Shown: positions 2,598 to 51,710 of the stretch, piece by piece
How positions within the stretch are numbered: position 1 is the first letter of the stretch
How the letters are laid out: each line of letters opens with the position of its first letter
From: a virus
Taxonomy: Duplodnaviria; Heunggongvirae; Uroviricota; Caudoviricetes
Reading direction: 5' to 3' (one strand)
IMG/VR virus record: IMGVR_UViG_2718218305_000006
DNA length: 64,000 bases
Position numbers and translations under genes: made by a program
Notes under the pieces: model-generated
The model's database searches: none
What the model was told of the DNA's origin: nothing
Seen by the model: the letters and a program-made list of their open reading frames with translations, nothing else

Positions 2598-2761
2598 CAT
2601 ATCGTTTGCACAGTCACATTCGCGATTTATGGCGGGCTGTGTGGGGGAGCCGAAAGGCTCGCCGGTTTCCGTACCCGGTAGTGCTAACCCCGCACAGTTC
2701 GCCACCACGATGATTAGCACCTGACGGTGGCGATAATGTCCAAATGTACGGAGTTATCGTT

Positions 2762-3319
2762 ATGACCACTCAGATTTCTGTCGAAACTCTTTCCCCAATT
2801 ACACACAACCAAATTCCCGTTATCACTACCGAGTTACTGGCACAGCTTTACTGTACCGAGATCAACAACATCAAAGTAAATTACACCCGTAATTCCGAGC
2901 GTTTTGTTGAGGGTAAACACTTTTTCAAGGTTGTTGGTGATGAGTTGAAAAATTTGCGGGTTACTTTAAGTAACTCACAAACGCCTGTTTCCCCCAAAAC
3001 CCGCTCCCTCATCCTCTGGACAGAACGAGGCGCAGCCCGTCACGCCAAAATGCTCGAAACCGATCAGGCGTGGGATGTGTTCGAAAAACTGGAAGACTGC
3101 TATTTCAGACAAAAGGATCCGTCAGCGCCAGCTTCATGCCAGAAAAGTTACGACACGCGAGTTCTCTGTTATCAGCGAGGCGGTGTCACTGTTTCCACAA
3201 TTCAGTTGCGGGATGATGATATTGTTATTTCCCTTGAGTCATGGCTGGAACTGGCGAGAGCCAATGGTTGGTTTGTTGTTCGCAGAGATAAACTGGTGGA
3301 AAGGCTGATGCAGCTTTAA
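2762..3319 (+). CDS. ORF6N-domain (antirepressor N-terminal-like) protein
   Basis: GGAG RBS 8 nt upstream of ATG; motifs NSERFVEGKHFF..LWTERGAARHAKML..AWDVFEKLEDCYF resemble the ORF6N/antirepressor N-domain. Confidence 0.5.
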   Translation: MTTQISVETLSPITHNQIPVITTELLAQLYCTEINNIKVNYTRNSERFVEGKHFFKVVGDELKNLRVTLSNSQTPVSPKTRSLILWTERGAARHAKMLETDQAWDVFEKLEDCYFRQKDPSAPASCQKSYDTRVLCYQRGGVTVSTIQLRDDDIVISLESWLELARANGWFVVRRDKLVERLMQL

Positions 3320-5979: not shown

Positions 5980-6115
5980 TAAAAAAAGCCGCCAGTTGCC
6001 TGAGACCTCTGGCGGTGTGAGATTCATGGAGAATCAAGGAAAGATACTACCACTTTCGTCATCGGCATTTTTAAATGAAAACTGTTTACTTAGTCAACAA
6101 TAACGGAAAGAAATT

Positions 6116-6295
6116 ATGACATTTCTGAACCAGTTAATGCTGTACTTCTGTACGGTGGTCTGTGTGCTGTATCTCCTTTCGGGTGGGTACAGGGCCATGC
6201 GTGACTTCTGGCGCAGACAGATTGACAAAAGGGCCGCTGAGAAAATCAGCGCCGGTCAGTCAGCCGGAAGCAAACCCGAAGAGCCGCTCATTTAG
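6116..6295 (+). CDS. small hydrophobic protein (59 aa)
   Basis: ATG with upstream GGAAAG; translation MTFLNQLMLYFCTVVCVLYLLSGG.. has one predicted TM helix; below the ORF-track size cutoff. Confidence 0.3.
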   Translation: MTFLNQLMLYFCTVVCVLYLLSGGYRAMRDFWRRQIDKRAAEKISAGQSAGSKPEEPLI

Positions 6296-6335
6296 CGGCA
6301 ACTTTCTTAATCACACCTTTCGACGAGAAAATCCC

Positions 6336-6608
6336 ATGTCAGAAATTACATCCCTGGTCACTGCAGAGGCAGTGAAGGAAGTCCTGCGCTCTGAAGAAGT
6401 CCTGAGCGCACTGAAACAAAAACTTCGCCATAACCTGGAAGCGCGTCTTGATGCAGAGGTTGATGCCATTCTGGATGAGCTGCTTGGTGTACAGGCAGAG
6501 CCACCGACTGAAGCGGGAGATACCACCGCAGAGAGCGGTGAAGTTCAGCCTGAATCACCGGTCGCCGATGCGACTGAACCTCAACCCGAATCGGTCATGA
6601 TGCTGTAA
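6336..6608 (+). CDS. hypothetical acidic helical protein (90 aa)
   Basis: Internal ATG of ORF 6162..6608; [21 protein letters not shown]..; between nanS-p and holin. Confidence 0.35.
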
Positions 6609-6684
6609 CGGGGAGTCAGGGCCATCAGTAAACAGCTGCTGGCCTTTTTCATGTTGTGAGCTTCCGGATAACGGGAGACGGGGT

Positions 6685-6900
6685 ATGTACCAGATGGAAA
6701 AAATCACAACGGGTGTGTCATACACCACGTCAGCGGTGGGGACGGGATACTGGTTACTGCAGCTGCTGGACAAAGTCTCTCCGTCCCAGTGGGTGGCGAT
6801 AGGTGTGCTGGGGAGTCTGCTGTTTGGCCTGCTGACGTATCTGACTAACCTGTATTTCAAAATTAAAGAGGACCGTCGCAAGGCTGCCCGGGGAGATTAG
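6685..6900 (+). CDS. S: class II holin (phage 21 S-like pinholin), dual-start
   Basis: 71 aa, [10 protein letters not shown].. with two in-frame Met codons (antiholin/holin pattern); resembles phage 21 S holin as recalled. Confidence 0.85.
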
Positions 6901-6903
6901 GTG

Positions 6904-7461
6904 ATGAACCATGAAGAAATGAATCAGCGCTTCAGTCGTCTGGAAAATGAAATTGCTGAACTGAATAAAAAACTGTCGACGCTGATGCCTTCTGAAGATG
7001 AAAAAAAACGCCGCGATGAGCAGTTTGCTGCGTTTGACGATTATTGTCGGAAAGTGATGAGCAGAAATCTCTCAGAGTGTTTCAGTATTCATAATGATAA
7101 TTTCAGTGAGCTGGAATGGGAGTGTAACCGGCCATCCTTTGTTGTATCCGGTGATGCTGGGAAAATAACCATCTCAGAAAATGGAAAAGTAACACCGCCA
7201 TCGCACCAGCATAGTGAGGAGCTCATTGAATTTGCCATTGATTACCTGAAGAACAATAAAAAACAGGGGCTGATGAAGTGCATTGGTCGTTGCATGGGAT
7301 ATCTGCAGATAGCTGCTGAGATTGAAGCGCTGGCCAGTGGTGCGGACAAGGATGCAGTTGTGCGGGAGGCTCTTCTTCGTGAGTTTGACAACCCGCCCTT
7401 TAAAAAAGTGCCGGCTTACTGGTTTCATCCAGGACTGACTTATCTTAAAGGACGTATATAA
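6904..7461 (+). CDS. hypothetical protein inserted between holin and endolysin
   Basis: 185 aa; N-terminal coiled-coil-like segment (ENEIAELNKKLSTL); no family recognised; tightly packed after the holin stop. Confidence 0.5.
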   Translation: MNHEEMNQRFSRLENEIAELNKKLSTLMPSEDEKKRRDEQFAAFDDYCRKVMSRNLSECFSIHNDNFSELEWECNRPSFVVSGDAGKITISENGKVTPPSHQHSEELIEFAIDYLKNNKKQGLMKCIGRCMGYLQIAAEIEALASGADKDAVVREALLREFDNPPFKKVPAYWFHPGLTYLKGRI

Positions 7462-7503
7462 GCTGGCTCGTTATCTGTTGCCGATAAATCCTGATAAATA
7501 TCC

Positions 7504-8037
7504 ATGAACACCAAAATCAAATACGGCCTGTCGGCTGCCGTTCTGGCGCTGATTGCCGCTGGTGCGCCTGCGCCTGACATTCTCGACCAGTTTCTGGATG
7601 AAAAGGAAGGTAACCACACCACGGCATACCGTGATGGTGCGGGTATCTGGACCATCTGCCGAGGTGCCATCATGGTGGATGGTAAGCCTGTGATTCCTGG
7701 CATGAAGCTGTCGAAGGAAAAATGCGACCGGGTTAACGCCATTGAGCGTGATAAGGCGCTGGCATGGGTGGAGAAAAACATCAAAGTGCCACTGACCGAA
7801 CCCCAGAAAGCGGGTATTGCGTCATTCTGTCCTTACAACATTGGCCCAGGTAAGTGTTTCCCGTCGACGTTTTATAAACGAATTAATGCAGGTGATCGCA
7901 GGGGAGCGTGTGAGGCGATTCGCTGGTGGATTAAGGACGGTGGGCGTGATTGCCGCACACGTTCAAATAACTGCTACGGACAGGTTATTCGTCGTGACCA
8001 GGAAAGCGCATTAGCTTGTTGGGGGATAGATCAGTGA
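7504..8037 (+). CDS. R: SAR endolysin (lysozyme R)
   Basis: 177 aa; N-terminal signal-anchor-release segment [16 protein letters not shown] then lysozyme-like domain; near-identical to 48943..49476. Confidence 0.85.
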
Positions 8038-8501
8038 GAAGAGTAACCGCGATTATTTACGCTCTGGTTATCTGCATCATCGTCTGTCTGTTATGGGCTG
8101 TTAATCATTACCGCGATAACGCCATCACCTACAAAGCGCAGCGCGATAAAAAAGCCAGAGAGCTGGAACAGGCGAATGCCACCATTACTGACATGCAGGT
8201 GCGCCAGCGTGATGTTGCTGCGCTCGATGCAAAATACTCGAAGGAATTAGCCGATGCGAGAGCTGAAAATGAAACTCTGCGTGCTGATGTTGCCGCTGGT
8301 CGTAAGCGCCTGCGGATCAACGCCACCTGCCACGGTACCGTGCGTGAAGCCACCGGCACCTCCGGCGTGGATAATGCAACCGGCCCCCGACTGGCAGACA
8401 CCGCTGAACGGGATTATTTCATCCTCAGAGAACGGTTGATGATGATGCAGAAGCAGCTGGAAGGGGCGCAGGAATATATCCGCACTCAGTGTATTAACTA
8501 G
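8034..8501 (+). CDS. Rz: i-spanin Rz
   Basis: GTG start overlapping the R stop; N-terminal TM then coiled-coil; embedded Rz1 in +1 frame. Confidence 0.8.
8269..8439 (+). CDS. Rz1: o-spanin Rz1 (lipoprotein), embedded in Rz
   Basis: [15 protein letters not shown] lipobox followed by a Pro-rich segment, entirely inside Rz. Confidence 0.65.
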
Positions 8502-8524
8502 TATTTTTGTTATCCGGAGAATGC

Positions 8525-8749
8525 ATGAAGAAATTACTGGTAACCGTAAAGCCTTTTCAGGGAACAATTCCGTTCCGTATTTTGCAGCGTGGTCGTGTTC
8601 TTGTTGAAGGTTCGTTCAGTGGTAAATGTACGCAATTACACTCCCGGACCTTTCAGGTGAATGCCACGAATGAAGAGCTAACCGTTGAGTGTACGATGAA
8701 TGCCGCTAAATGCCGCATGGTATCCGCTGCATTACAGCCAGTGTGTTGA
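8525..8749 (+). CDS. hypothetical small protein (74 aa)
   Basis: ATG after a GGAGA RBS; between lysis cassette and terminase; no family recognised. Confidence 0.3.
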   Translation: MKKLLVTVKPFQGTIPFRILQRGRVLVEGSFSGKCTQLHSRTFQVNATNEELTVECTMNAAKCRMVSAALQPVC

Positions 8750-9167
8750 GCGACCTTATTATCCATGCGCGGTATTGTCGCCGTATTCCCGTATTAACAG
8801 AGACCGCAGCCCGACAGGGAGACTCCTCTGCGCGAGTGTGCGGGGATAATCAAAAACGATACACACCGGGGTTTACCGCGTTAACGGAGCGCGGCGTTGT
8901 CCCCTCATGGTCGCTGGTCCGGTGCGATGGTGGAAGAAACCGGACTACATTACAAATGATAACCATTATCATTTTTCGGGTCCTCCTGGTGTGGTGGGCC
9001 TGAACACGGGGCGGGCGGCGCGGAAAAAGGCGCATTTTTTGATTTTTATGGCACCATCACCACCAGTGTAAGTTATTGATATATAGAAAAATAAAAATTT
9101 TTAGTGTCGAATCTGGTTGTTTTTTGTTCATCACTGGTGTGTGTTTACATAATTTTCAGGGGGAGTT

Positions 9168-9644: not shown

Positions 9645-11764
9645 ATCAGGTGAACGAGAGCCATAGCCGCGCATCCGATATCTGGCGCGAAGTGGCCTCG
9701 CTGTTTCGCCCACCTGGCCGGTTACCAGTAGCGGAAGCCATCAGGCGTTATATGCGGGTTCCACGGGGAGCCAATACTTCCGGTCCGTGGGAGTCATCGC
9801 TGACGCCCTATATGATTGACCCCATTAATACATTATCAGCCCGTGAATATGACGCGGTGGTGTTTGTGGGACCTGCGCGAACCGGGAAAACCGAAGGGCT
9901 GATTGATGGCTGGATTGTGTACGGCATCATCTGTGATCCGGCGGATATGCTGGTGGTGCAGATGACTGAGACGAAGGCGCGTGAGCATTCCAGAACGCGT
10001 CTTTCCAGGACGTTTCGCCACAGTCCGGAGGTCAGCAAGCGCCTCAGTCCTTCCCGTAATGACAACAACGTCCACGATAAAATGTTTCTTGACGGCTCCT
10101 TCCTGAAGATTGGCTGGCCGTCGATCACCGTCTTTTCCTCTTCGGATTACCGTCGTGTGGCGCTGACGGATTATGACCGTTTCCCTGAAAACGTGGACGG
10201 GGAAGGGGATGCCTTCACGCTGGCCTCAAAGCGTACCACCACCTTTATGTCCTCGGGGATGACCCTGGTCGAGAGTTCACCGGGGCGGGATATCACCGAT
10301 ACCAAATGGCGTTGTGGTGGCGCACATGAGGCACCGCCAACAACGGGTATCCTGTCACTGTATAACCGGGGAGACCGCCGCCGGTGGTACTGGCCGTGTC
10401 CGCACTGCGGGGAATATTTTCAGCCGGTGATGGATAACATGACCGGATACCGGAATAACCCGGATTTTGTGGCTGCCGGTCAGGCTGCCCGTCTGATGTG
10501 TCCGCATTGTCGCGGGCTGATTGCCCCTGAGCAGAAACGCGAACTGAATAACCAGGGGATCTGGCTTCGTGAAGGTGAACGGGCGGCGGCGGACGGCAGT
10601 ATCACCGGAACGCCACGAAACTCCCGGATTGCGTCATTTTGGATGGAGGGGCCAGCTGCGGCGTTTCAGACCTGGGAACAACTGATTTTTAAACTGCTGG
10701 CGGCAGAAGAAGAGTATGAGCGAACCGGCAGTGAAGAGACCCTGAAAGCGGTGGTGAACACCGATATCGGACGACCCTATCTGCCCCGTTCAGCCACGGA
10801 ACAGCGTAAAAGTGAACTGCTTGAACAGCGTGCCGAGCCGTTTCCCCGGCGATCTGTGCCGGATGGTGTGCGTTTTATTGAGGCAACGGTTGACGTACAG
10901 GGCGGTAAAAATCGCCGTTTTGTTGTGCAGATCACCGGATACGGAGAGCAGGGGGAACGCTGGATTGTTGATCGCTACAACATCCGGCATTCACTGCGCT
11001 GCAGTCCCAACGGTGAAAGTCTGCCGGTTGATCCGGCGGCATATCCGGAGGACTGGGATTTGTTGCTGACGGATGTGTTCCATAAAACATGGCCGCTGGC
11101 TTCTGATCCGGATGTGCGCATGCGTCTGATGGCCATGGCGGTGGATACGGGAGGGGAAGCCGGGGTGACAGATAACGCCTATCGTTTCTGGCGTCGTTGC
11201 CGGAGTGACGGACTGGGCAACAGGGTGTTTCTGTTCAAGGGGGATGGACTTCGCCGTGACAGGCTGATTAACCGAACCTTCCCGGATAATACCGGCAGAA
11301 GTGCCCGCCGTGCCAGAGCCAGTGGCGATGTCGCGCTGTGGCTGGTTCAGACGGATGCGTTTAAGGATCGTGTAAATAATGCCCTGTGGCGTGACACACC
11401 AGGGCCGAACTATATCCACTTTCCCGACTGGCTGGGGCGGTGGTTTTACGATGAGCTGACCTATGAAGAGCGCGGCAGTGACGGAAAATGGCGAAAACCG
11501 GGCAGGGGCGCTAACGAAGCGTTTGACCTGCTGGTTTATGCGGATGCGCTTGCCGTTCTGCATGGTTACGAAAAGATCCGCTGGCCCTCCGCACCGGACT
11601 GGGCACAGCGGGAAACGTGGCTCGTCTTCCCGCAGGAGCGTTCTGGTGAAACGGTATCCCCGGAACTGACGGCCGGGGCAGAAAAACGCCGTCGCCGGAA
11701 GAAAAAACTGCGGACGGAGCGTGCGGAAGATAATCCATGGATAACATCAGGAGGCTGGTTGTGA
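9641..11764 (+). CDS. terminase large subunit (lambda gpA family)
   Basis: 707 aa; VFVGPARTGKTEG P-loop; overall colinear with lambda A as seen in prophage 2. Confidence 0.9.
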   Translation: MNQVNESHSRASDIWREVASLFRPPGRLPVAEAIRRYMRVPRGANTSGPWESSLTPYMIDPINTLSAREYDAVVFVGPARTGKTEGLIDGWIVYGIICDPADMLVVQMTETKAREHSRTRLSRTFRHSPEVSKRLSPSRNDNNVHDKMFLDGSFLKIGWPSITVFSSSDYRRVALTDYDRFPENVDGEGDAFTLASKRTTTFMSSGMTLVESSPGRDITDTKWRCGGAHEAPPTTGILSLYNRGDRRRWYWPCPHCGEYFQPVMDNMTGYRNNPDFVAAGQAARLMCPHCRGLIAPEQKRELNNQGIWLREGERAAADGSITGTPRNSRIASFWMEGPAAAFQTWEQLIFKLLAAEEEYERTGSEETLKAVVNTDIGRPYLPRSATEQRKSELLEQRAEPFPRRSVPDGVRFIEATVDVQGGKNRRFVVQITGYGEQGERWIVDRYNIRHSLRCSPNGESLPVDPAAYPEDWDLLLTDVFHKTWPLASDPDVRMRLMAMAVDTGGEAGVTDNAYRFWRRCRSDGLGNRVFLFKGDGLRRDRLINRTFPDNTGRSARRARASGDVALWLVQTDAFKDRVNNALWRDTPGPNYIHFPDWLGRWFYDELTYEERGSDGKWRKPGRGANEAFDLLVYADALAVLHGYEKIRWPSAPDWAQRETWLVFPQERSGETVSPELTAGAEKRRRRKKKLRTERAEDNPWITSGGWL

Positions 11765-11973
11765 GCACAGAAGAAGCCAGAGAAATGATACAGCGGTACC
11801 GTGAAGCGGAAATGGCCGTACTGGAGGGAAAGTCTGTCACCTTCAACGGGCAGCAACTGACGCTGGAAAGCCTTTCTCAGATCCGCGCCGGACGTCAGGA
11901 GTGGGAACGCAGGCTTGCCGCGATGGTGAGCCGCAGGCGGGGAAAACCGGGATTTAAACTGGCGAGGTTTTAA
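11737..11973 (+). CDS. head-tail joining protein (gpW-like)
   Basis: 78 aa between terminase and portal; W-like position and size. Confidence 0.6.
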   Translation: MDNIRRLVVSTEEAREMIQRYREAEMAVLEGKSVTFNGQQLTLESLSQIRAGRQEWERRLAAMVSRRRGKPGFKLARF

Positions 11974-13475
11974 TGGCAATTATTGATGATGTGATCGGCG
12001 TGTTTTCCCCCGGGTGGAAAGCAGCCAGACTGCGTTCAAGGGCGTTAATCATGGCCTATGAGGCGGTGAAACCGACCCGGACACATAAAGCCCGGCGGGA
12101 AAATCGCTCTGCTGATCAGCTCAGTAAATACGGTGCGGTTTCCCTGCGGGAGCAGGCCCGTTTTCTGGATATCAATCATGACCTGGTGATTGGTGTGTTT
12201 GACAAGCTGGAAGAGCGGGTGATTGGTGCCAGGGGAATTATTGTGGAGCCTCAGCCATTACGAAAAAACGGGGAAATGGCGGCTGAGCTGGCTGCGGATA
12301 TCCGCCGTTTGTGGGCTGAATGGTCCGTGAGTCCGGATGTGACAGGGCAGTATACCCGTCCTGTGCTTGAACGTTTACTGCTGCGGACCTGGCTGCGGGA
12401 TGGTGAAGTGTTTGCGCAGATGGTCAGTGGTGCGGGAAACGGTCTGGAACGGACGGCGGGAGTGCCATTCTGGCTTGAGGCGATGGAGCCGGATTTTGTT
12501 CCCATGCGCACTGATGAATCCGCCGGACTGAATCAGGGGGTTTTTCTTGATGAGTGGGGAAGACCGAAAAAATATCTGGTTTATAAAAATTATCCGGTCA
12601 GCGGCCGGCAGAGTGATACGAAAGAAATCGCTGCCGGAAAAATGATCCACCTGAAGTTCACTCGTCGTCTGCATCAGACGCGAGGCTCATCCATGTTATC
12701 GGGGGTGCTGATGCGGATCAGTGCCCTTAAGGAGTATGAGGATGCGGAACTGACAGCGGCGCGTATTGCTGCGGCGCTGGGACTGTATATCCGTAAAGGT
12801 GACGGACAGGACTATGAAGATCCGGGGATCAAAGAAACCGAGCGGGAAGTCCATATCACCCCGGGTATTATTTATGACGATTTGCGCAAGGGCGAGGATA
12901 TCGGCATGGTCAAATCTGACCGTCCCAATCCCAACCTTGAAACTTTCCGCAACGGCCAGTTGCGTGCAGTGGCAGCAGGCAGTCGTCTGAGTTTTTCCAG
13001 TGCGGCGCGTAACTATAACGGCACCTACAGCGCCCAGCGGCAGGAGCTGGTCGAGTCCACGGATGGTTACCTGATCCTGCAGGACTGTTTTATTGGCGCG
13101 GTAACCCGCCCGGTGTACCGGACATGGCTGAATATGGTGGTTGCGGCAGGTCTGCTGAAAATTCCGGCGGATGTGGAGATGAAAACGCTATATAACGCGA
13201 CGTATTCCGGTCCGGTGATGCCGTGGATCGACCCGGTTAAGGAAGCTGAAGCCTGGAGAATTCAGATCCGGGGTGGTGCAGCGACAGAATCTGACTGGGT
13301 GCGTGCTGGTGGGCGCAATCCGGATGAGGTCAAACGTCGCCGCAAGGCTGAAATTGATGAAAACAGCAGACTGGGGCTGGTCTTTGATACTGACCCCGTC
13401 AACGACAAAGGAGGCAACAGTGCCGGAACTGAACAACAGCGTCAGCAGGCCACCGACAGCCAGCATGAAGAATAA
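11973..13475 (+). CDS. portal protein
   Basis: 500 aa following the W-like gene; lambda B-like order. Confidence 0.85.
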   Translation: MAIIDDVIGVFSPGWKAARLRSRALIMAYEAVKPTRTHKARRENRSADQLSKYGAVSLREQARFLDINHDLVIGVFDKLEERVIGARGIIVEPQPLRKNGEMAAELAADIRRLWAEWSVSPDVTGQYTRPVLERLLLRTWLRDGEVFAQMVSGAGNGLERTAGVPFWLEAMEPDFVPMRTDESAGLNQGVFLDEWGRPKKYLVYKNYPVSGRQSDTKEIAAGKMIHLKFTRRLHQTRGSSMLSGVLMRISALKEYEDAELTAARIAAALGLYIRKGDGQDYEDPGIKETEREVHITPGIIYDDLRKGEDIGMVKSDRPNPNLETFRNGQLRAVAAGSRLSFSSAARNYNGTYSAQRQELVESTDGYLILQDCFIGAVTRPVYRTWLNMVVAAGLLKIPADVEMKTLYNATYSGPVMPWIDPVKEAEAWRIQIRGGAATESDWVRAGGRNPDEVKRRRKAEIDENSRLGLVFDTDPVNDKGGNSAGTEQQRQQATDSQHEE

Positions 13476-15444
13476 ATCCTGGTTCAGGATGCTGGCGGGT
13501 AGTCAGGGTGAGGCAGATATTTATATTTATGACGAGATTGGTTTCTGGGGAGTTACCGCGAAGCAGTTTGTCAGCGATATGAATGCCCTGGGTGATATCA
13601 CCCACATTAATCTCCATATCAATTCACCGGGTGGCGATGTCTTTGAAGGCATCGCCATTTTTAATGCCCTGAAAAATCAGGGGGCGACCATTACCGTGTA
13701 TGTGGATGGCGTTGCCGCCTCGATGGCATCTGTGATTGCGATGGCCGGTGATACGGTCATTATGCCGGAAAATGCCTTCATGATGATCCATAAGCCATGG
13801 GGATTCAGTGGCGGGGATGCTGAGGATATGCGCAGTTATGCCGATTTGCTGGATAAAGTCGAATCGGTACTGTTGCCAGCCTATGCGCAGAAAACCGGAA
13901 AAACCACCGATGAAATTGCCGCCATGCTGGCGGATGAAACCTGGATGTCCGGTGCCGAATGTCTGGCACACGGATTTGCTGACCAGGTGACACCCGCTGT
14001 TGAGGCAATGGCATGTATTCAGTCAAAACGTACAGAGGAATTTAAAAAGATGCCGGAATCCATCCGAAACATGATTACTCCGCCACGCAACAGTGCCCCG
14101 CGTGATACCACAGTGACAATCCCTGCACCGGCGGTAACAGAACCATCACCGGTACCGGCAGTGTCTGATGAGGCGACCATTCGCGCCCGCGTTATGGCTG
14201 AGCAGAAAGCCCGCATGTCAGGCATTAACGATCTGTTTGCCATGTTCGGTGGTCGCTATCAGACGCTTCAGGCACAGTGCGTGGCTGATCCTGACTGTTC
14301 GCTGGAAATGGCCCGTGAACGTCTGCTGAATGAAATGGGCAAGGAGTCCTCGCCGACCAACAAAAATACACCGGCTCATATTTATGCCGGAAACGGCAAT
14401 TTTGTGGGGGACGGGATCCGCCAGGCGATGCTGGCCCGTGCCGGATTTGAAAATGTCGAGAAGGATAACGCCTATAACGGGATGACCCTGCGTGAATGGG
14501 CTCGCATGTCACTGACGGAGCGCGGTATTGGGGTGGCCAGTTATAACCCCATGCAGATGGTCGGGCTGGCGCTGACGCACAGCACCTCTGATTTTGGCAA
14601 TATTCTGCTGGATGTGTCGAACAAGGGGCTGATCCAGGGCTGGGAGGAATCAGAAGAAACCTTCCAGAAGTGGACCCGTAAGGGACGCCTGTCAGACTTC
14701 AAAACAGCGTATCGCGTGGGGATGGGCGGTTTTGGTTCTCTGCGCCAGGTTCGTGAGGGGGCGGAGTATAAATACATCACCACCTCAGATCGCAAGGAGA
14801 CCATTGCACTGGCCACTTACGGGGAGATTTTCTCCATCACCCGCCAGGCCATTATCAATGATGATCTGAATATGCTGGTGGACGTGCCGATGAAGATGGG
14901 GCGTGCGGCGAAGGCAACGATTGGTGACCTGGTCTACAAGGTGCTGACGGATAACCCGAAACTGTCCGACGGTAAGGCGCTGTTCCATGCCGATCACAAA
15001 AATATTGCCACCGGGGGGATCTCCGTTTCCGGACTGGATGCGGCCCGTCAGATGATGCGCCTGCAGAAAGAAGGCGATCGTGCCCTGAATATCCGTCCGG
15101 CCTTTATGCTGGTACCGGTGGCACTGGAGACGGTGGCGAACCAGACCATCAAATCGGCCAGTGTGAAAGGGGCGGATGCAAACGCCGGTGTCATTAACCC
15201 TATCCAGAACTTTGCTGAGGTGATTGCAGAAGCGCGTCTTGATGCGGCAGACCCGAAAACCTGGTATCTGGCGGCGGCACAGGGCACTGACACCATTGAA
15301 GTGGCCTGGCTGGATGGTGTGGACACGCCATACATTGATCAGCAGGAAGGTTTCACCACTGACGGCATTGCCACAAAAATCCGTATTGATGCCGGAGTGG
15401 CACCACTTGACTGGCGCGGGCTGGTGCGTTCGTCGGTGGCCTGA
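13465..15444 (+). CDS. prohead protease (ClpP/S49-like) fused to major capsid protein
   Basis: Start ATG overlaps the portal stop; INSPGGDVFEGIAIFNAL..MASVIAMAGD serine-protease motifs then capsid-like C-terminal domain. Confidence 0.8.
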   Translation: MKNKSWFRMLAGSQGEADIYIYDEIGFWGVTAKQFVSDMNALGDITHINLHINSPGGDVFEGIAIFNALKNQGATITVYVDGVAASMASVIAMAGDTVIMPENAFMMIHKPWGFSGGDAEDMRSYADLLDKVESVLLPAYAQKTGKTTDEIAAMLADETWMSGAECLAHGFADQVTPAVEAMACIQSKRTEEFKKMPESIRNMITPPRNSAPRDTTVTIPAPAVTEPSPVPAVSDEATIRARVMAEQKARMSGINDLFAMFGGRYQTLQAQCVADPDCSLEMARERLLNEMGKESSPTNKNTPAHIYAGNGNFVGDGIRQAMLARAGFENVEKDNAYNGMTLREWARMSLTERGIGVASYNPMQMVGLALTHSTSDFGNILLDVSNKGLIQGWEESEETFQKWTRKGRLSDFKTAYRVGMGGFGSLRQVREGAEYKYITTSDRKETIALATYGEIFSITRQAIINDDLNMLVDVPMKMGRAAKATIGDLVYKVLTDNPKLSDGKALFHADHKNIATGGISVSGLDAARQMMRLQKEGDRALNIRPAFMLVPVALETVANQTIKSASVKGADANAGVINPIQNFAEVIAEARLDAADPKTWYLAAAQGTDTIEVAWLDGVDTPYIDQQEGFTTDGIATKIRIDAGVAPLDWRGLVRSSVA

Positions 15445-15531
15445 TAACCGCGTTATCACAATCACTGCCCGAAAGGGCTTTTTTTATGCCTGAAAAACAG
15501 CCCCACAGGGGCTGTCCGGAGAAACAGCATT

Positions 15532-15858
15532 ATGGCGAAAAATTTTGTACAGGACGGTACCACCATTGAACTGGTGAATGCCGGAGATCAGACCATCCTG
15601 AGCGGTGCTGCGGTGGTGGTCGGCAGTATGGTGGCCGTGGCCATTACCGATATTCCTGCCGGTGAGGCCGGTGACGGTTTTGCCGAAGGCGTGTTCCTGC
15701 TGCCCAAACAGTCTGCTGACGACATTCAGTCCGGCGCGGTGGTTTATCTGAAGGACGGGGTTGTGCAGCTGGCTGCCGACGGTGCGGTGGCCGCGGGGGT
15801 AGCCTGGGAAAATGCTCCTGCAAACAGCGCCACTGTGGCGGTAAAAATCAATGTCTGA
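15532..15858 (+). CDS. hypothetical head protein (108 aa, Gly/Ala/Val-rich)
   Basis: Position after the capsid gene. Confidence 0.4.
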   Translation: MAKNFVQDGTTIELVNAGDQTILSGAAVVVGSMVAVAITDIPAGEAGDGFAEGVFLLPKQSADDIQSGAVVYLKDGVVQLAADGAVAAGVAWENAPANSATVAVKINV

Positions 15859-16132
15859 TCTGTTTACGCGAATGTGTTGCCGGATGGACGTGGCGACCGT
15901 TCGGATGATGGGCAAACAGGCGGAGATTAACGGCGTCGTGTACGACGTGATGCCGGAGGAAGAGTCCGCGGAGATGGGGGCGCTTTCGGGCAGCCAGTTG
16001 TCACTGGTGGTGTTTTCAGCCCGGTACCGTCCGGCCCGTCATGATGTTGTTGTGTTTGCGGGGCGCACACTGACGGTGACCCGTTATGACACGTACAACG
16101 GTAAACCCCGGATTTTTGTCGAACAGGAATGA
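15851..16132 (+). CDS. putative head-tail adaptor (FII-like position)
   Basis: 93 aa, overlaps neighbours, position before the Z-like gene. Confidence 0.4.
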   Translation: MSDLFTRMCCRMDVATVRMMGKQAEINGVVYDVMPEEESAEMGALSGSQLSLVVFSARYRPARHDVVVFAGRTLTVTRYDTYNGKPRIFVEQE

Positions 16133-23982: not shown

Positions 23983-26900
23983 GTGGGTAAAGGGGGCGGC
24001 AAGGGGCACACGCCGGTAGAGGCAAAGGACAATCTTAAGTCCACGCAGATGATGAGCGTGATTGACGCCATTGGTGAAGGGCCGATTGAAGGTCCGGTGA
24101 AGGGGCTGCAGAGTATCCTGGTGAACAAAACCCCGCTGACGGACACGGACGGTAATCCCGTGATACACGGTGTGACCGCGGTCTGGCGTGCCGGGGAGCA
24201 GGAGCAGACACCGCCGGAAGGTTTTGAGTCCTCCGGAGCTGAAACCGCACTGGGCGTGGAAGTGACGAAGGCAAAGCCGGTGACGCGCACCATTACGTCC
24301 GCGAACATTGACCGCCTGCGGGTCACCTTCGGGGTGCAGTCACTGGTGCAGACCACGTCAAAGGGTGACCGAAACCCGACATCCGTCCGCCTGCTGATTC
24401 AGTTACAGCGTAACGGTAACTGGGTGACGGAAAAGGATGTCACCATTAACGGCAAGACAACCTCGCAGTTTCTGGCGTCGGTGATTCTGGATAATCTGCC
24501 TCCCCGTCCTTTTAACATCCGGATGGTCAGGGAGACGGCGGACAGCACCACGGACCAGCTGCAGAATAAGACGCTGTGGTCGTCATACACCGAAATCATC
24601 GATGTGAAACAGTGCTACCCGAACACGGCTATTGTGGGGCTGCAGGTGGATGCGGAGCAGTTCGGCGGCCAGCAGATGACGGTGAACTACCATATCCGCG
24701 GTCGCATCATCCAGGTGCCGTCAAACTATGACCCGGAAAAACGCACGTACAGTGGTATCTGGGACGGTAGCCTGAAACCGGCATACAGCAATAACCCGGC
24801 CTGGTGCCTGTGGGACATGCTGACCCACCCGCGCTACGGAATGGGAAAACGCCTGGGGGCGGCGGATGTGGACAAGTGGGCGCTGTATGCCATTGCGCAG
24901 TACTGCGACCAGATGGTCCCTGATGGTTTCGGGGGCACAGAGCCGCGGATGACCTTTAATGCGTACCTGTCACAACAGCGTAAGGCGTGGGATGTGCTCA
25001 GTGATTTCTGCTCGGCGATGCGCTGTATGCCGGTATGGAACGGCCAGACGCTGACGTTCGTTCAGGACCGCCCGTCGGATGTGGTGTGGCCGTACACCAA
25101 CAGCGATGTGGTGGTGGATGATAACGGCGTGGGGTTTCGCTACAGCTTCAGCGCCCTGAAGGACCGCCACACGGCGGTGGAGGTGAATTACACCGACCCG
25201 CAGAACGGCTGGCAGACCTCCACGGAACTGGTGGAAGACCCGGAAGCCATACTGCGCTACGGGCGCAACCTGCTGAAGATGGATGCGTTCGGCTGCACCA
25301 GTCGCGGTCAGGCCCACCGTGCCGGGCTGTGGGTGATAAAGACCGGACTGCTGGAAACGCAGACGGTGGATTTCACGCTCGGGTCACAGGGGCTGCGTCA
25401 CACACCCGGTGACATTATTGAAATCTGTGATAACGACTATGCCGGGACCATGACCGGCGGACGTATCCTGTCCATCGATGCCGCCAGCCGCACCCTGACG
25501 CTGGACCGTGAGGTGACCCTGCCGGAGACCGGTGCCGCCACGGTGAACCTGATTAACGGCAGCGGTAAGCCGGTGAGTGTGGACATCACCGCACACCCCG
25601 CGCCGGACCGGATACAGGTCAGCACCCTGCCGGATGGCGTGGAGACATACGGTGTGTGGGGGCTCTCCCTGCCGTCACTGCGTCGTCGCCTGTTCCGCTG
25701 TGTCTCCATACGGGAAAACACGGACGGCACCTTTGCCATCACGGCGGTGCAGCACGTACCGGAAAAAGAAGCCATCGTGGATAACGGGGCCAGCTTTGAG
25801 CCGCAGTCAGGCACCCTGAACAGCGTTATTCCACCGGCAGTGCAGCACCTGACGGTGGAGGTGAGCGCGGCTGACGGTCAGTATCTGGCACAGGCGAAAT
25901 GGGACACGCCGCGGGTGGTGAAGGGTGTGCGCTTCAGTCTGCGCCTGACCAGCGGAAGCGGAGAAGACAGCCGTCTGGTGACCACCGCCATCACTGCGGA
26001 TACAGAGCATCGTTTCAGTGGTCTGCCGCCCGGGGAATACACCCTGACAGTCAGGGCAATTAACAGTTATGGCCAGCAGGGCGAACCGGCCACCACCACG
26101 TTCAGGATTAATGCACCTGCGGTACCCGCCACGATTGAGCTGACACCGGGCTATTTTCAGATAACAGCGGTCCCGCGTCTTGCGGTGTATGACCCGACGG
26201 TACAGTTTGAGTTCTGGTTTTCGGAGACAAAAATCGCAGACACATCTCAGGTGGAAACCTCTGCCCGTTATCTGGGGACCGGCAGTCAGTGGAGTGTATC
26301 CGGCCCGCACATTAAGCCCGGGAAGGATTTCTGGTTTTACGTGCGCAGCGTCAACCTGGTGGGGAAATCTGCTTTTGTGGAAGCCAGTGGCCGGGCCAGC
26401 AATGATGCAGAAGGGTATCTGGGGCTGTTTCGGGAAAAAATAGGAAAACTGCATCTGGCTCAGGGGCTGTGGGAGCTGATAGACAACAGCCAGCTTGCGG
26501 ATGAGATGGCGGAGATGAAGACCACCATCACCGAAACCCGCAATGAAATCACACAGACGGTCAGTAAAACGCTGGAAGACCAGAGCGCCACCATACAGCA
26601 GATACAGCGCGTGCAGAAGGACACAAATGATGACCTGGCTGCGCTGTACATGCTGAAGGTTCAAAAAACGAAAGACGGCATTCCCTATGTGGCCGGGATT
26701 GGTGCAGGGATTGAGGATACTGATGGCCAGCCACTGAGCAACATACTGCTGCTGGCTGACCGTATCGCGATGATAAATCCGGAGAGCGGCAACAGCACGC
26801 CGTTATTTGTGGCGCAGGGGAATCAGCTGTTCATGAACGACGTGTTCCTGAAACGACTGTTTGCGGTGAGCATCACGTCATCCGGCAATCCTCCGGCATT

Positions 26901-40118: not shown

Positions 40119-40408
40119 CCTGGCCTGAAGCATTCACAACGGTAGGAATTGCGATGGCGGTGGCGCTGGTGGTGTATTCGATTTGCCGCTGGGGATAAAA
40201 ACGGTTTGCGGGAAAAGGATAGTTAAGTAGAATTGCTGCGGGTGCTTGAGGCTATCTGCCTCGGGCATGAACACCAACGGCAGATAGAGAAAAGCCCCAG
40301 TTAACATTACGCGTCCTGCAAGACGCTTAACATTAATCTGAGGCTCAATCCATGCTGAACACATGTAGGTTAGCCTCTTACGTGCCGAAAGGCAAGGAGA
40401 AGCAGGCT

Positions 40409-40564
40409 ATGAAGCAGCAAAAGGCGATGTTAATCGCCCTGATCGTCATCTGTTTAACCGTCATAGTGACGGCACTGGTAACGAGGAAAGACCTCTGCGA
40501 GGTGCGAATCCGAACCGGTCAGACGGAGGTCGCTGTCTTCGTAGACTACGAATCTGAGAAGTAA
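40409..40564 (+). CDS. hok: Hok/Gef-family type I toxin (overlapping mok-like frame from 40352)
   Basis: MKQQKAMLIALIVICLTVIVTALVTRKDLCEVRIRTGQTEVAVFVDYESEK parallels Hok (..LTRKSLCEIRYRDG..EVAAFMAYE..). Confidence 0.7.
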   Translation: MKQQKAMLIALIVICLTVIVTALVTRKDLCEVRIRTGQTEVAVFVDYESEK

Positions 40565-42841: not shown

Positions 42842-43408
42842 GTGAGCATAAATATGATATACCCGGAAATTACAGGCAAAAGCGGTGAGCATTTACGCCT
42901 GAAAACGCTGGAAAGTGTCTGGATCCAGGGGAAACTGCGTATGTGGGGGCGTTGGTCGTATATTGGCGACGGTAAGACGGGAAATATGTTCAACCAATTA
43001 CTGACCTCTAAAAAGCTGACAAAAACGGCAATTAACGAGGCGCTCCGGAGGATGAAAAAAGCGGGTCTGGACAAACCTGAACTTGAGGCTTTTTTGCGGG
43101 ATATGATCAACGGCAATCAAAAAAGCTGGCTGGCACATTGTACCGATTCAGAGGCGTTAATAATCGATAGGGTTATTGGTGAAGTACTGGCAGGTTATCC
43201 CGGGCTGCTCAATGTTCTGAGTCAGCGTTATGTGGGGCGGGGGATGACTAAGCGCAAAATGGCTGAATTGCTGAATGATGCACATCCGGAATGGAGTTTA
43301 AGAACCTGTGAAAGACGCATTGAGCATTGGCTAAAGGTGGCAGAATTTATTTTGTACAAACCAATGGTTATGGCTTTTGGTATAGAGAAAAAAGTTATTG
43401 CTTTTTGA
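42842..43408 (+). CDS. late-gene antiterminator Q-like protein
   Basis: 188 aa; N-terminal two-thirds near-identical to 1922..2488, C-terminus diverged; followed by conserved element and terminator. Confidence 0.75.
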   Translation: MSINMIYPEITGKSGEHLRLKTLESVWIQGKLRMWGRWSYIGDGKTGNMFNQLLTSKKLTKTAINEALRRMKKAGLDKPELEAFLRDMINGNQKSWLAHCTDSEALIIDRVIGEVLAGYPGLLNVLSQRYVGRGMTKRKMAELLNDAHPEWSLRTCERRIEHWLKVAEFILYKPMVMAFGIEKKVIAF

Positions 43409-43487
43409 CGTAAAAACTGCTTCAATTCCGGTAAGCTTCGCAAAGCTGTACCGCGAGGCGAATAGCAGACATGGACATTTGAAAGAG

Positions 43488-43509
43488 CCCGCTTTTTGCG
43501 GGTTTTTTT
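43488..43509 (+). terminator. rho-independent terminator (tR'-like)
   Basis: CCCGC-TTTTT-GCGGG followed by a T7 run about 80 nt after Q. Confidence 0.5.
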
Positions 43510-43632
43510 ATGACTGAAAAACGGCACGGGGCGTTAAACGCGCTGGTGGTTGCTAATACCGGTCTTTCAACTTGCTGGCTTTTTCGACAAGAGTTATTGG
43601 TATGTCACGTTAACCGGAAAAGGGAAAAAGAC

Positions 43633-43830
43633 ATGCTAAAACAGCAGGATATGACAGAAACCGCCAGAGTGGTGTTTAATGAATTAAGCGTTACCGAACC
43701 GGCGACAGTCGGGGAGATTGCGCAGAATACTTACCTTTCACGCGAACGCTGCCAGTTAATACTGACCCAGCTGGTTATGGCGGGTCTGGCAGACTATCAG
43801 TGCGGTTGTTACAGACGCATTCAGTCCTGA
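43633..43830 (+). CDS. small hypothetical protein (65 aa), possible winged-helix
   Basis: Internal ATG with purine-rich RBS; ..TVGEIAQNTYLSRERCQLILTQLVMAG.. Confidence 0.35.
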   Translation: MLKQQDMTETARVVFNELSVTEPATVGEIAQNTYLSRERCQLILTQLVMAGLADYQCGCYRRIQS

Positions 43831-43965
43831 AGGCTTTTTATTTGTGGTAAATGGGCGGCTGGTGGGGGGGGCGGCACCTGTCAGTCCTTTGCTTATGTGT
43901 TGATGATAATTTACCTTTTGGGGCTATAATTGAGCTAACCAATTGCTAATGAAAGTAAAATTATA

Positions 43966-44679
43966 ATGGCTGTTGTCTGTTCAGTTATCATGGTTTGCTC
44001 CCCAATTAATATTTTTCTTGAAAAGGATACGTTGTCACTTAAGCCAGGCTCAGTCGTTCTGGCCACCAAATGCATCAGGGAGCTTTTCCTTATGCATTAT
44101 GGCAAAGTTAAAATTGTCGATATAAGCGAATCCGTCGTAAGTCAATATCTGGAAAGTCAGCATAAGCTGACGAGGACTCGTCTGACTGACATTCCGCTTT
44201 ACCTGTTGCTGGAACCCAACAATCCTGCGTTGGCTGCGGCTTTAATTACCAGCCAGGGATTTTCCGGAGAGGTCACGGATATGTTTCTTATGATGGCCTG
44301 CCTGTCTCTGTTTGAAACAGATGAACGGATGTCATTGTTTTTAAGTGGATGTTTATCCAGCATAAGTGCCAAAGTCAGGGCGATAATTCAGACAGATATA
44401 TCAGCAAGCTGGACGCTTGGTGCGATTGCTCTACAGTTGCATATGAGTGAGAGTTTGTTAAAGACAAAACTGAAAAATGAAGGGGGCATGTTCAGTCGCT
44501 TGTTGCTGGAAGAGCGGATGCGTGTTGCTGTAAATATGTTATGTTCCCGGTATGGATATGGACAGGCTGTAGCAGAAAAATGTGGTTATTCAAGCCGGTC
44601 CTACTTTATTTCTGTATTTCACCGCTATTATGGCTTCCCGCCAGACAGATATGTATCCAGGCAAGGGCTTGATTATTGA
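43966..44679 (+). CDS. AraC-family transcriptional regulator
   Basis: C-terminal AraC HTH (..SWTLGAIALQLHMSESLLKTKLK..RSYFISVFHRYYGFPP); located between Q and the tRNA genes. Confidence 0.7.
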   Translation: MAVVCSVIMVCSPINIFLEKDTLSLKPGSVVLATKCIRELFLMHYGKVKIVDISESVVSQYLESQHKLTRTRLTDIPLYLLLEPNNPALAAALITSQGFSGEVTDMFLMMACLSLFETDERMSLFLSGCLSSISAKVRAIIQTDISASWTLGAIALQLHMSESLLKTKLKNEGGMFSRLLLEERMRVAVNMLCSRYGYGQAVAEKCGYSSRSYFISVFHRYYGFPPDRYVSRQGLDY

Positions 44680-44707
44680 TTTTCATCTGATTATTATTTT
44701 TTGGCTC

Positions 44708-44783
44708 GGCCCTTTAGCTCAGTGGTGAGAGCGAGCGACTCATAATCGCCAGGTCGCTGGTTCAAATCCAGCAAGGGCCACCA
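44708..44783 (+). tRNA. tRNA with CAT anticodon (ileZ-like tRNA-Ile2 or tRNA-Met)
   Basis: Cloverleaf: acceptor GGCCCTT/AAGGGCC, anticodon loop CTCATAA, T-loop GGTTCAAATCC, 3' CCA encoded. Confidence 0.8.
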
Positions 44784-44790
44784 TCACAAA

Positions 44791-44870
44791 CCGCCATTAG
44801 CTTATCAGGAAGAGCAGACGACACCATAACAGGGTTGTTGGTGCGGGGCCGGGTCCCCGATGGCGGTCCA
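44791..44870 (+). other. degenerate tRNA-like element between the two tRNAs
   Basis: Perfect 7-bp acceptor pairing CCGCCAT/ATGGCGG, D-stem and CGGGG/CCCCG T-stem, but 6-nt T-loop and no standard 7-nt anticodon loop. Confidence 0.25.
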
Positions 44871-44883
44871 TTATCGGTATTCT

Positions 44884-44960
44884 GCGTTGTTAGCTCAGCC
44901 GGACAGAGCAATTGCCTTCTAAGCAATCGGTCAGTGGTTCGACTCCACTACAACGCGCCA
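44884..44960 (+). tRNA. tRNA-Arg (anticodon TCT, argO-like)
   Basis: Acceptor GCGTTGT/ACAACGC, anticodon loop CTTCTAA, T-loop GGTTCGACTCC, CCA encoded. Confidence 0.85.
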
Positions 44961-44973
44961 CACTTATTTTCCA

Positions 44974-44997
44974 GGCTCGCTTCGGCGGGCCTTTTTT
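44974..44997 (+). terminator. rho-independent terminator after tRNA-Arg
   Basis: GGCTCGC-TTCG-GCGGGCC followed by TTTTTT. Confidence 0.55.
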
Positions 44998-45129
44998 GTA
45001 TCTGCGCCACGCCCGGCGCATACCAACCACAGAGCCTTTCGGGGGTGAGCTTACGGAGTGGTCAGTGTGACTTTCTCTGTGGGCAGATCGCTCCCGGGCG
45101 TTGGCTCACCCACCCAAAGGAACGTCACG

Positions 45130-45561
45130 ATGTTTGGAATCTTCAAAAAGAAAACCCGCAGAGCGGCAACGGAAATTAAAAAGTTTGAAAAACGCGATCT
45201 GGCACAGGTGGTGATTAACGCCGCATACCTGGTGGCCTGTGCAGATGGTGAATGTGAGGCATCCGAGAAAGCGAAGATCGAACAGGTACTGCGTAATCAG
45301 CCTGCGCTGTCCGCGTTTACGTCAGAAATTAATGCGATTAGCGCAACCATTATCGGTCAGCTGGATACGAACTTTAAAACTGGTCGTCGTGCGGCGTTAC
45401 GTGAGATTGAGGATGTGAAACACGATACGCGTGAAGCGGAAGATGTGCTGGATGTGGCGGTGGCCATTGCGGAGGCAGACGGCGAAATTGAGCCGGAAGA
45501 GCGCAAGGTGCTGGAAGAGATTGCCGGTGTTCTGGGTCTTCGTCTGGAGAATCACCTGTGA
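45130..45561 (+). CDS. TerB-like domain protein
   Basis: 143 aa from an internal ATG; paired ..ACADGECEASEKAKIEQVL.. and ..IAEADGEIEPEERKVLEEIAGVLGL.. motifs typical of TerB-like proteins. Confidence 0.5.
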   Translation: MFGIFKKKTRRAATEIKKFEKRDLAQVVINAAYLVACADGECEASEKAKIEQVLRNQPALSAFTSEINAISATIIGQLDTNFKTGRRAALREIEDVKHDTREAEDVLDVAVAIAEADGEIEPEERKVLEEIAGVLGLRLENHL

Positions 45562-45725
45562 CGGTAAAACTGCGCCTGGCTGTGGCTGCACTCCTGCTGT
45601 TTCTGGTGGTGATGGTGGATTTCACCAGCAGAATCATGTCGGTGCTGGCGGATGGGGTGCTGGTCTGCGGCATTGTGGTATTGCTGTGGCCGGTGATAAA
45701 AAGAAACAGCCTGCATAATGCTTGA
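45558..45725 (+). CDS. small membrane protein (55 aa), GTG start overlapping TerB-like stop
   Basis: VTVKLRLAVAALLLFLVVMVDF..VLVCGIVVLLWPV, two hydrophobic helices; below the ORF-track cutoff. Confidence 0.3.
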   Translation: MTVKLRLAVAALLLFLVVMVDFTSRIMSVLADGVLVCGIVVLLWPVIKRNSLHNA

Positions 45726-45759
45726 TTTTTTTGTTTGCTGTTTATTAAAAACACTTCTG

Positions 45760-45865
45760 CATGGTGAATCCCCCTGTGCGGAGGGGCGATCAGCAACCAG
45801 GTATATGGGATAATCGCGGATTCAGGTGCTGATACTGAATTCACCGGGAGGCACCCGGCACCATG
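45760..45865 (+). other. conserved 106-nt structured element upstream of nanS-p (copy 2)
   Basis: Same termini CATGGTG..CACCATG and core as 3660..3765, with a cluster of substitutions in the middle. Confidence 0.3.
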
Positions 45866-46038
45866 CTTTGCCACAAAAGTGTTGTTTCTGTTTTTCTCAA
45901 ACTATCATCGTTATCCCTTTATTTCCGGCTGCGCATGGCGCGGCTTTTTTTTACGACCAGCCACTGGCAGATGGTCATCCTGTGATTTGATTCCGGTTCC
46001 GGCTTTTTAACTCTGTTCCTGTACACGGGAGAAATTCG

Positions 46039-51395: not shown

Positions 51396-51710
51396 ATGCT
51401 ACATGATCACCTGGCAGAATGTCTGGAGAAAAAAGGACTGTACCGGAGAGCAGCTGAACGATGGGCAAAAGTGATGGTACAGCTAAGTGATGACCAGAAA
51501 AGAAAAGTGGCGGCACAGAAACGAGCAGAGTGTTTGCGTAAGGCGCGCCGGACTCCGGTTTCACCGGTGAACCTGACCGAAATAAAACAAGCGGTCAACA
51601 GACTACATTCTGAGTTGGGAATGGGATTTGAAGAGCGGCGGGTATTCCGACGATATAAAGGGACAGGAGAACAGAATACGTCCGGAAACGCGCGGTCAAA
51701 AAAATGCTAA
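51396..51710 (+). CDS. PerC-family transcriptional activator (Pch-like)
   Basis: 104 aa, ..LAECLEKKGLYRRAAERWAKVM.. resembles PerC/Pch; preceded by a very AT-rich tract. Confidence 0.55.
   Translation: MLHDHLAECLEKKGLYRRAAERWAKVMVQLSDDQKRKVAAQKRAECLRKARRTPVSPVNLTEIKQAVNRLHSELGMGFEERRVFRRYKGTGEQNTSGNARSKKC

Follow-up and report, generated by a model that had tools for sequence, protein, structure and literature searches.

What does a transcription regulator of the AraC type do in the late region of a lambdoid prophage, between the antiterminator gene Q and the phage tRNAs, and does the small open reading frame (ORF) upstream of it belong to the same unit? The locus that raises this question lies in a 64,000-nt stretch of DNA from a tailed phage (Caudoviricetes; IMG/VR record IMGVR_UViG_2718218305_000006), here called the window, in which two prophages stand in tandem: prophage 1, roughly the left 30 kb (1–30200), and prophage 2 (30240–64000). 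A first reading of the letters of the window, referred to below as the original prediction, had noted a 65-aa and a 237-aa ORF between Q and the tRNAs of prophage 2 and had suggested that they were late-region cargo, possibly a regulatory moron that controls virulence or acid-resistance genes of the host. Both ORFs are present at their positions, with the flanking genes as described. Judged by its sequence, the 237-aa gene is psrB, one of the two "prophage-encoded secretion regulator" (psr) paralogues of Escherichia coli O157:H7. We hold it very probable that psrB and the winged-helix gene upstream of it make up a 1.19-kb insertion in the late operon of prophage Sp11, and that PsrB is an activator of the host GAD (glutamate decarboxylase) circuit to which the small gene is not tied. 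The proposal of a regulatory moron was therefore correct, but it is not new, as psrB has already been characterised experimentally.

Identity of the AraC-type gene

Prophage 2 matches the Sp11 prophage of E. coli O157:H7 Sakai at 99.9–100% and the right-hand prophage of O-island 57 (OI-57) of strain EDL933 at 99.96%, and by these alignments it is Sp11, the right half of OI-57. The 1.3-kb region containing both genes is 100% identical in many O157:H7 chromosomes. In Sakai the AraC ORF carries the tag ECs_2191, the small ORF ECs_2192 and Q ECs_2193 ("phage antiterminator"). The protein encoded at 43966–44679 (+ strand, ATG to stop) is 100% identical to ECs_2191 and to WP_000301797.1, which is encoded at 1905274–1905987 of the resequenced EDL933 genome, within the range given for OI-57 in PMC8565820. 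It is the sole Psr-type AraC gene in the parts of OI-57 of EDL933 that we examined, which included the Q-to-tRNA slots of both prophages. A second copy of the family in O157 genomes, ECs_1087, lies beside pchA on Sp4 and encodes a protein of 90.7% identity, differing at 22 residues.

These relationships agree with the published nomenclature. The gene ecs1087 of Sp4 is named psrA in PMC13502914, and PsrB is described as z2104 of OI-57, with PsrA as its closest homologue at 90% identity (PMC10877973, PMC8565820). Since the window gene is identical to ECs_2191 and 90.7% identical to the psrA of Sp4, and no second AraC gene was found in OI-57, we assign it as psrB (z2104 / ECs_2191); its identity to the named genes also places it in the Psr family. 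The comparison with known prophage AraC-like regulators that the original prediction had proposed thus ends in an exact match to the protein of Sakai and of OI-57 and a close one to PsrA. OI-57 is an island of 80.5 kb that also carries adfO, nleG2-3, nleG6-2 and nleG5-2 (PMC10877973, PMC8565820). Alleles of z2104 are listed, without primers, in the supplement of PMC4763077.

The context is that of psrB as well, with Q on the 5' side, the tRNAs ileZ and argO on the 3' side, and on the same phage a pchB-type gene for a PerC-family activator of the enterocyte effacement locus (LEE) at 51396–51710 (+ strand; Pfam PerC 149 bits; Sakai counterpart ECs_2182, pchB). The psrA locus of Sp4 resembles it in the equal length of the protein, in the order of small ORF, 137-nt gap, psr gene and tRNAs, and in a pch gene on the phage, but differs in the type of Q, in an extra CPBP protease gene, in a frameshifted small ORF and in having three tRNAs as against the two found here. 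Published work describes psr genes as occurring together with pch regulators and effector loci (PMC10877973). Sp11 conforms to this: it carries pchB, and in Sakai its end, beyond the window, holds nleG2-3, nleG6-2 and nleG5-2.

Boundaries and composition of the insertion

The gene for the late antiterminator of prophage 2 occupies 42842–43408 (+ strand; start at 42854 according to RefSeq) and is recognised by Pfam DUF1133 (349 bits), Phage_antitermQ (33 bits) and PHROG 753 ("anti-termination protein Q-like"). Sakai prophage Sp10 shares this Q and the ileZ-argO-TerB backbone, but there the tRNAs come directly 3' of the hairpin that follows Q. When the window was compared with Sp10 by blastn, homology was confined to 42853–43508 and 44694–45866, and Sp10 has 23 bp between the two segments. 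The small ORF and psrB therefore constitute an insertion of 1185 bp (43509–44693) bounded by the two breaks. Its GC content is 44.6%, compared with 52.7% for the window. A discrete, AT-rich segment missing from a collinear relative is what is expected of a moron. No Rfam family was detected within the cassette, nor did a search for PADLOC defence families give a meaningful match there.

The left edge of the insertion coincides with a hairpin and U-tract at 43480–43510 (+ strand): folding of the RNA from 43405–43520 gave a 13-pair hairpin followed by U7, with a z-score of -4.1 for the whole stretch, and Sp10 has a hairpin at the corresponding place. We infer that it is a late terminator of the tR' kind. 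A site resembling a sigma-70 promoter, ATGATA-16-TATAAT (10 of 12 consensus positions matched), lies at 43903–43930 (+ strand), 36 nt 5' of the psrB start codon. Its -10 box TATAAT is kept 5' of psrA, of a homologue in an Stx2k phage and of other homologues, including a 63%-identical one that follows an unrelated upstream context, a methylase gene; the site is thus a candidate promoter of psrB. At the other end, the sole terminator-like pattern near the end of psrB (44658–44671) lacks a U-rich tail, and no terminator-like site with such a tail was found by the scan between psrB and the tRNAs, the first being the hairpin at 44973–44992 (+ strand), after the tRNA-Arg.

The two tRNAs are those of the backbone. 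The first, with anticodon CAU (44708–44783, + strand), is called Met by ARAGORN and tRNA-Ile (ileZ) in Sakai and RefSeq; it lies outside the cassette and in Sp10 follows Q directly. The second is tRNA-Arg(UCU), argO (44884–44960, + strand). Just 5' of the CAU tRNA is a further promoter-like site (44669–44697), whose -10 TATTAT is in the backbone shared with Sp10 and whose -35 falls inside the end of psrB, which indicates that the insertion took the place of the upstream half of the promoter region of the tRNA. The codons that these tRNAs are annotated to read, ATA, AGA and AGG, together number 38 per 1000 in psrB and 46 in the small ORF, as against 7–12 in the neighbouring TerB and DUF968 genes. 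The leader that runs from the Q stop codon to the terminator (43405–43480) contains a second stable hairpin (about 43417–43468). This hairpin has no Rfam match; it may belong to a short, terminated transcript of the late region, similar to the late-leader small RNAs of Shiga toxin (Stx) phages.

The position after Q occurs in three states in one O157 genome: it is empty in Sp10 (25666–25688), contains the small ORF and an N6/N4 DNA methylase gene in the left prophage of OI-57 (14681–16087; both in extracted-locus numbering), and contains the small ORF and psrB in Sp11. By this comparison it acts as a site at which cargo is exchanged, just 5' of the phage tRNAs.

Selection and distribution

Both ORFs are, by their conservation, real genes and not chance ORFs. 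The ratio of nonsynonymous to synonymous substitution rates (dN/dS) of psrB is about 0.2 against diverged homologues, which is indicative of purifying selection, and it is 0.09–0.17 for the small ORF against three diverged homologues. Among the complete copies of psrB in IMG/VR, 32 of 33 are intact ORFs of 237 aa and one has 235 aa. The exact protein sequences of psrB and of the small ORF are each found on about 1000 or more public contigs, and psr homologues occur in 829 out of 5426 complete E. coli genomes (at least 99% identity in 588 records). All 16 distinct contexts examined place psr in a lambdoid late region, between Q and the lysis genes. The possibility that the gene would turn out to be a pseudogene in related strains, raised with the original prediction, is not borne out, as it is intact in them.

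Homologues of about 91% identity lie directly 5' of tRNAs and stx2AB in phage phiSTEC1575-Stx2k and in several draft contigs of E. coli strains that produce Shiga toxin (loci 6073–8754 and 9667–12329 in extracted-locus numbering). With psr immediately upstream of the tRNAs and the toxin genes, a regulator of the GAD circuit may be co-transcribed with Shiga toxin on induction.

The PsrB protein

The predicted protein consists of an N-terminal regulatory domain (residues ~1–125) and a double helix-turn-helix (HTH) DNA-binding domain (~134–233). Matches to Pfam HTH_AraC (50 bits, cut-off 26.6) and HTH_18 (37.8 bits, cut-off 33.6) over residues 155–230 place it in the AraC/XylS family. In Sakai the same sequence is annotated in a short form of 195 aa that starts at Met43. 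We rejected this start, as the first 42 residues are conserved as far as a 39%-identical homologue and evolve at a dN/dS of 0.19–0.25 relative to two diverged homologues; the 237-aa start, which RefSeq uses, is thus the correct one and the Sakai annotation is too short.

Within AraC/XylS the family is narrow. In a word-indexed search across 5.8 billion proteins no more than 52 clusters came up, almost all of them from E. coli; identities were 57–100%, with one at 39%. YdeO, GadX, GadW and AppY, all of the AraC type and encoded on the chromosome or on DLP12, regulate the GAD acid-resistance circuit of E. coli, and YdeO activates gadE, the same action as that reported for PsrB (see below). The best full-length NCBIfam model for PsrB is that of YdeO (NF007407; residues 1–229), followed by GadX (NF007432; C-terminal half only), but the scores of 106 and 87 bits are far under the respective equivalog cut-offs of 348 and 500. 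PsrB is thus a distinct lineage restricted to prophages and, on these profiles, a relative of YdeO and not its orthologue.

The nearest solved structure by sequence is the DNA-binding domain of GadX (3mkl). In the AlphaFold2 model of PsrB the DNA-binding domain has a predicted local distance difference test score (pLDDT) of 78–94, and it was aligned by Foldseek with 3mkl at 42% identity, a root-mean-square deviation of 1.2 Å and a template modelling (TM) score of 0.88–0.90. The best full-length structural matches of the model are Rns, CsvR and ToxT, with which it would share the arrangement of a beta-rich N-terminal and a double-HTH C-terminal domain, although sequence identity to them is 12–20% and the N-terminal domain of PsrB is modelled at low confidence.

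A similar regulator lies on another island. PatE (z0321, OI-8 / CP-933H) is a prophage AraC-like activator of gadE and hdeA that is reported to act at the same hdeA promoter region as PsrB (PMC10877973). The AraC gene of EDL933 OI-8, which from its position we take to be the PatE candidate, aligns with PsrB over the full length, including the N-terminal MA..CSVI motif, but the two are 37% identical, the OI-8 protein has 247 aa, and its gene is in a degenerate prophage at thrW instead of the slot between Q and the tRNAs.

The upstream winged-helix gene

The small ORF (43633–43830, + strand, ATG to stop) encodes the 65-aa protein ECs_2192, a member of PHROG 331 (E = 4e-37; function unknown). Extension to a 106-aa form starting at 43510 raises the PHROG 331 score, but the added part contains indels and shows no conservation among 22 aligned homologues (Escherichia, Klebsiella, Citrobacter, Buttiauxella and Raoultella). 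Conservation sets in sharply at the methionine at 43633, and the 65-aa form is therefore the correct one.

The AlphaFold2 model of the small protein (mean pLDDT 89.8) has helix 5–16, strand 24–25, helices 26–33 and 37–49 and strands 53–56 and 59–62. Foldseek matched it to winged-helix domains from OhrR/MarR and from IclR proteins (TM 0.7–0.8, E ~2e-3) and also to the winged helices of O-methyltransferases. The helix-strand-helix-helix-strand-strand order of the model and these matches bear out the label "wHTH-like" (winged HTH) given to it in the original prediction. Its Pfam match to TrmB (PF01978) is 18.3 bits, under the threshold of 25.6, and does not make it a member; the sub-threshold matches among 30 homologues are to TrmB in 26, DprA_WH in 24 and MarR_2 in 14. 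The model is accordingly best described as a generic winged helix and nothing more specific. A sequence-profile search found no relative of the family with a solved structure, and a literature search with ECs2192, ECs1086, Z2103 and Z1788 returned nothing relevant.

Could the two proteins form a functional pair, in which the psr locus would be a two-gene cassette and the small protein would modulate PsrB or its promoter? They are adjacent behind several Q types, with a gap of 123–138 nt, they were inserted together relative to Sp10, and the small ORF is under purifying selection. The distribution of the small ORF speaks against a dedicated association. In 80 IMG/VR loci it is found behind five different types of Q, and the gene that follows is psr in 33, an N6/N4 DNA methylase in 35 and neither in 4, the methylase being the successor in phiP27, in Stx2a phages and in the left prophage of OI-57. 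The more distant homologues of psr come after the methylase, which separates them from the small ORF. Beside psrA on Sp4, moreover, the small ORF (ECs_1086) is frameshifted at codon 49/50 in both Sakai (43343–43582) and strain 109 (second locus 14667–14863; both in extracted-locus numbering), yet psrA is intact and reported functional (PMC10877973, PMC13502914). We regard a functional pair as improbable. The small gene did come in with psrB, as the notion of cargo implied, but it does not travel specifically with the AraC gene. From these comparisons it is, instead, a widespread gene that stands first behind the terminator that follows Q, a separate gene of the phage backbone and no dedicated partner of PsrB.

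A speculation that we would give only slightly better odds than the functional pair is that the PHROG 331 protein regulates the late operon, or marks or controls the slot, whether this holds psr, a methylase or nothing, behind at least five unrelated types of Q. The slot includes the region just 5' of stx in many Stx phages, and were the speculation true, the small protein would couple late transcription of the phage to the expression of psr or stx.

Reported function and a possible mechanism

The functions of psrB are known from published work. PsrB binds the gadE and hdeA promoters directly and activates both, with an increase in acid resistance (PMC10877973, PMC8565820). GadE and YhiF are raised, and with them glutamate-dependent acid resistance and the HdeAB chaperones (PMC10877973, PMC8565820). 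Via the same two regulators PsrB represses type III secretion encoded by the LEE, and its induced expression increases both acid resistance and survival in the mouse stomach (PMC10877973, PMC8565820, PMC4456613). PsrA is likewise reported to act through GadE and YhiF (PMC10877973, PMC13502914), and psrA and gadE respond jointly to the prophage small RNA HnrS (PMC13502914). A regulon for the window gene has thus been published (PMC10877973, PMC8565820), and the gene is exactly the kind of prophage regulator, acting on host virulence and acid resistance, that had been suspected.

Taken together with the layout of the cassette, a scheme can be proposed. In the lysogen a conserved promoter of its own, at about 43903–43930, would drive psrB. 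On prophage induction, RNA polymerase modified by Q would read through the terminator at 43480–43510, and the small ORF, psrB and the tRNAs would then be transcribed together. At the head of the GAD circuit, PsrB would mimic YdeO as a protein that the phage supplies.

The same layout lends itself to a different reading, in which psrB serves the phage and not the host: as a regulator within the late operon, it would be expressed only once Q had brought about antitermination, and the host effects would be products of artificial overexpression. The gene does lie downstream of Q and the terminator, and between it and the tRNAs there is no terminator-like site with a U-tail, psr homologues are found immediately 5' of stx in inducible Stx phages, and deletion of psrB alone has little phenotype, the work on acid resistance having used induced expression (PMC10877973, PMC8565820). 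Sp11, however, is a degraded prophage (its integrase and exonuclease genes are annotated as pseudogenes in Sakai), yet psrB shows perfect conservation among O157 genomes and has a conserved -10 box directly upstream; the reported targets are host promoters; and deletion of psrA alters secretion and colonisation in the lysogen, psrA being responsive to host-side regulators (PMC10877973, PMC13502914). A purely phage-directed role is, in our judgement, very improbable.

Least credible of all is that the window gene is an allele of psrA or a decaying, redundant copy without a role: the 90.7% identity of the paralogues, the inconsistent published island assignments and the weak phenotype of the psrB single mutant (PMC10877973) could be cited for it, but ecs1087 of Sp4 is psrA according to PMC13502914 and differs from the window gene at 22 residues, the window gene is the sole AraC gene found in OI-57, where the reviews place psrB, and a dN/dS of about 0.2, an identical protein on about 1000 or more contigs and intact ORFs in 32 of 33 complete copies are not signs of decay.

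The interpretation that we favour, psrB as an inserted activator of the GAD circuit with a separate small gene upstream, has several points against it. The putative psrB promoter is a match to a consensus, and promoter-like sites are no commoner in the region than in shuffled sequence. The N-terminal domain, which would carry the regulatory input, is modelled at a pLDDT of 40–69. Deletion of psrB alone has little effect on secretion (PMC10877973, PMC8565820), whereas deletion of psrA gives a clear phenotype in secretion and colonisation (PMC10877973); the contribution of PsrB in the laboratory may thus be small, or redundant with that of psrA. The regulon, for its part, is taken from reviews that summarise the work of Tree et al. 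2011 and Yang et al. 2015. As to the name, the z2104 label was assigned by way of the resequenced EDL933 genome, and the literature places psrA (z1789) in OI-50 / CP-933N (PMC10877973, PMC8565820), although neither in Sakai nor in resequenced EDL933 does the potC-potB prophage that corresponds to OI-50 contain an AraC homologue. We searched for psrA in Sp10 as well and found no AraC homologue; the paralogue is in Sp4. With no psr gene in the OI-50 prophage of either genome, a location of psrA there is at odds with these genomes and the island assignments of the literature are not fully reliable; the original EDL933 assembly or the assignment itself may be wrong for psrA.

Other features of the window

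Prophage 1 has, as the original prediction stated, an ORF6N gene in the interval that corresponds to the psrB cassette: a Q of the DUF1133 type at 1922–2488 is followed by an ORF with an ORF6N domain at 2744–3319. No tRNA was found in this Q/ORF6N part of prophage 1. The ORF6N protein gives weak matches to PDC-S05, which PADLOC lists as a candidate defence family (E = 1e-7). Prophage 1, a lambdoid prophage distinct from prophage 2, has as a whole no close match among the 5426 complete E. coli genomes, the best being 96.9% identical over 93%. With prophage 2 nearly identical to Sp11, the tandem arrangement of the window is therefore unlike that of Sakai and EDL933. Two RNA families were detected elsewhere in prophage 2: an STnc100 small RNA at 45730–45902 (+ strand; 104.7 bits, gathering score 47), between a DUF3927 gene and a SASA/DUF6645 esterase gene, and a sok antitoxin RNA at 40240–40414 (+ strand; 113.5 bits), which adjoins a prophage Hok/Gef toxin gene.

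Implications

That a virulence-linked regulator was picked out here from the letters of the DNA indicates that a reading of raw sequence can recover a genuine one. The analysis also yielded the exact boundaries of the psr cassette, support for the 237-aa start of PsrB, the independence of the winged-helix gene and the inconsistency of the reviews on the location of psrA. The locus itself is an example of a phage regulator taking over a host circuit, in which an AraC protein of a prophage is plugged into the conserved GAD acid-resistance system. The consequence for enterohaemorrhagic E. coli is already established: PsrB aids survival in stomach acid and turns type III secretion down.

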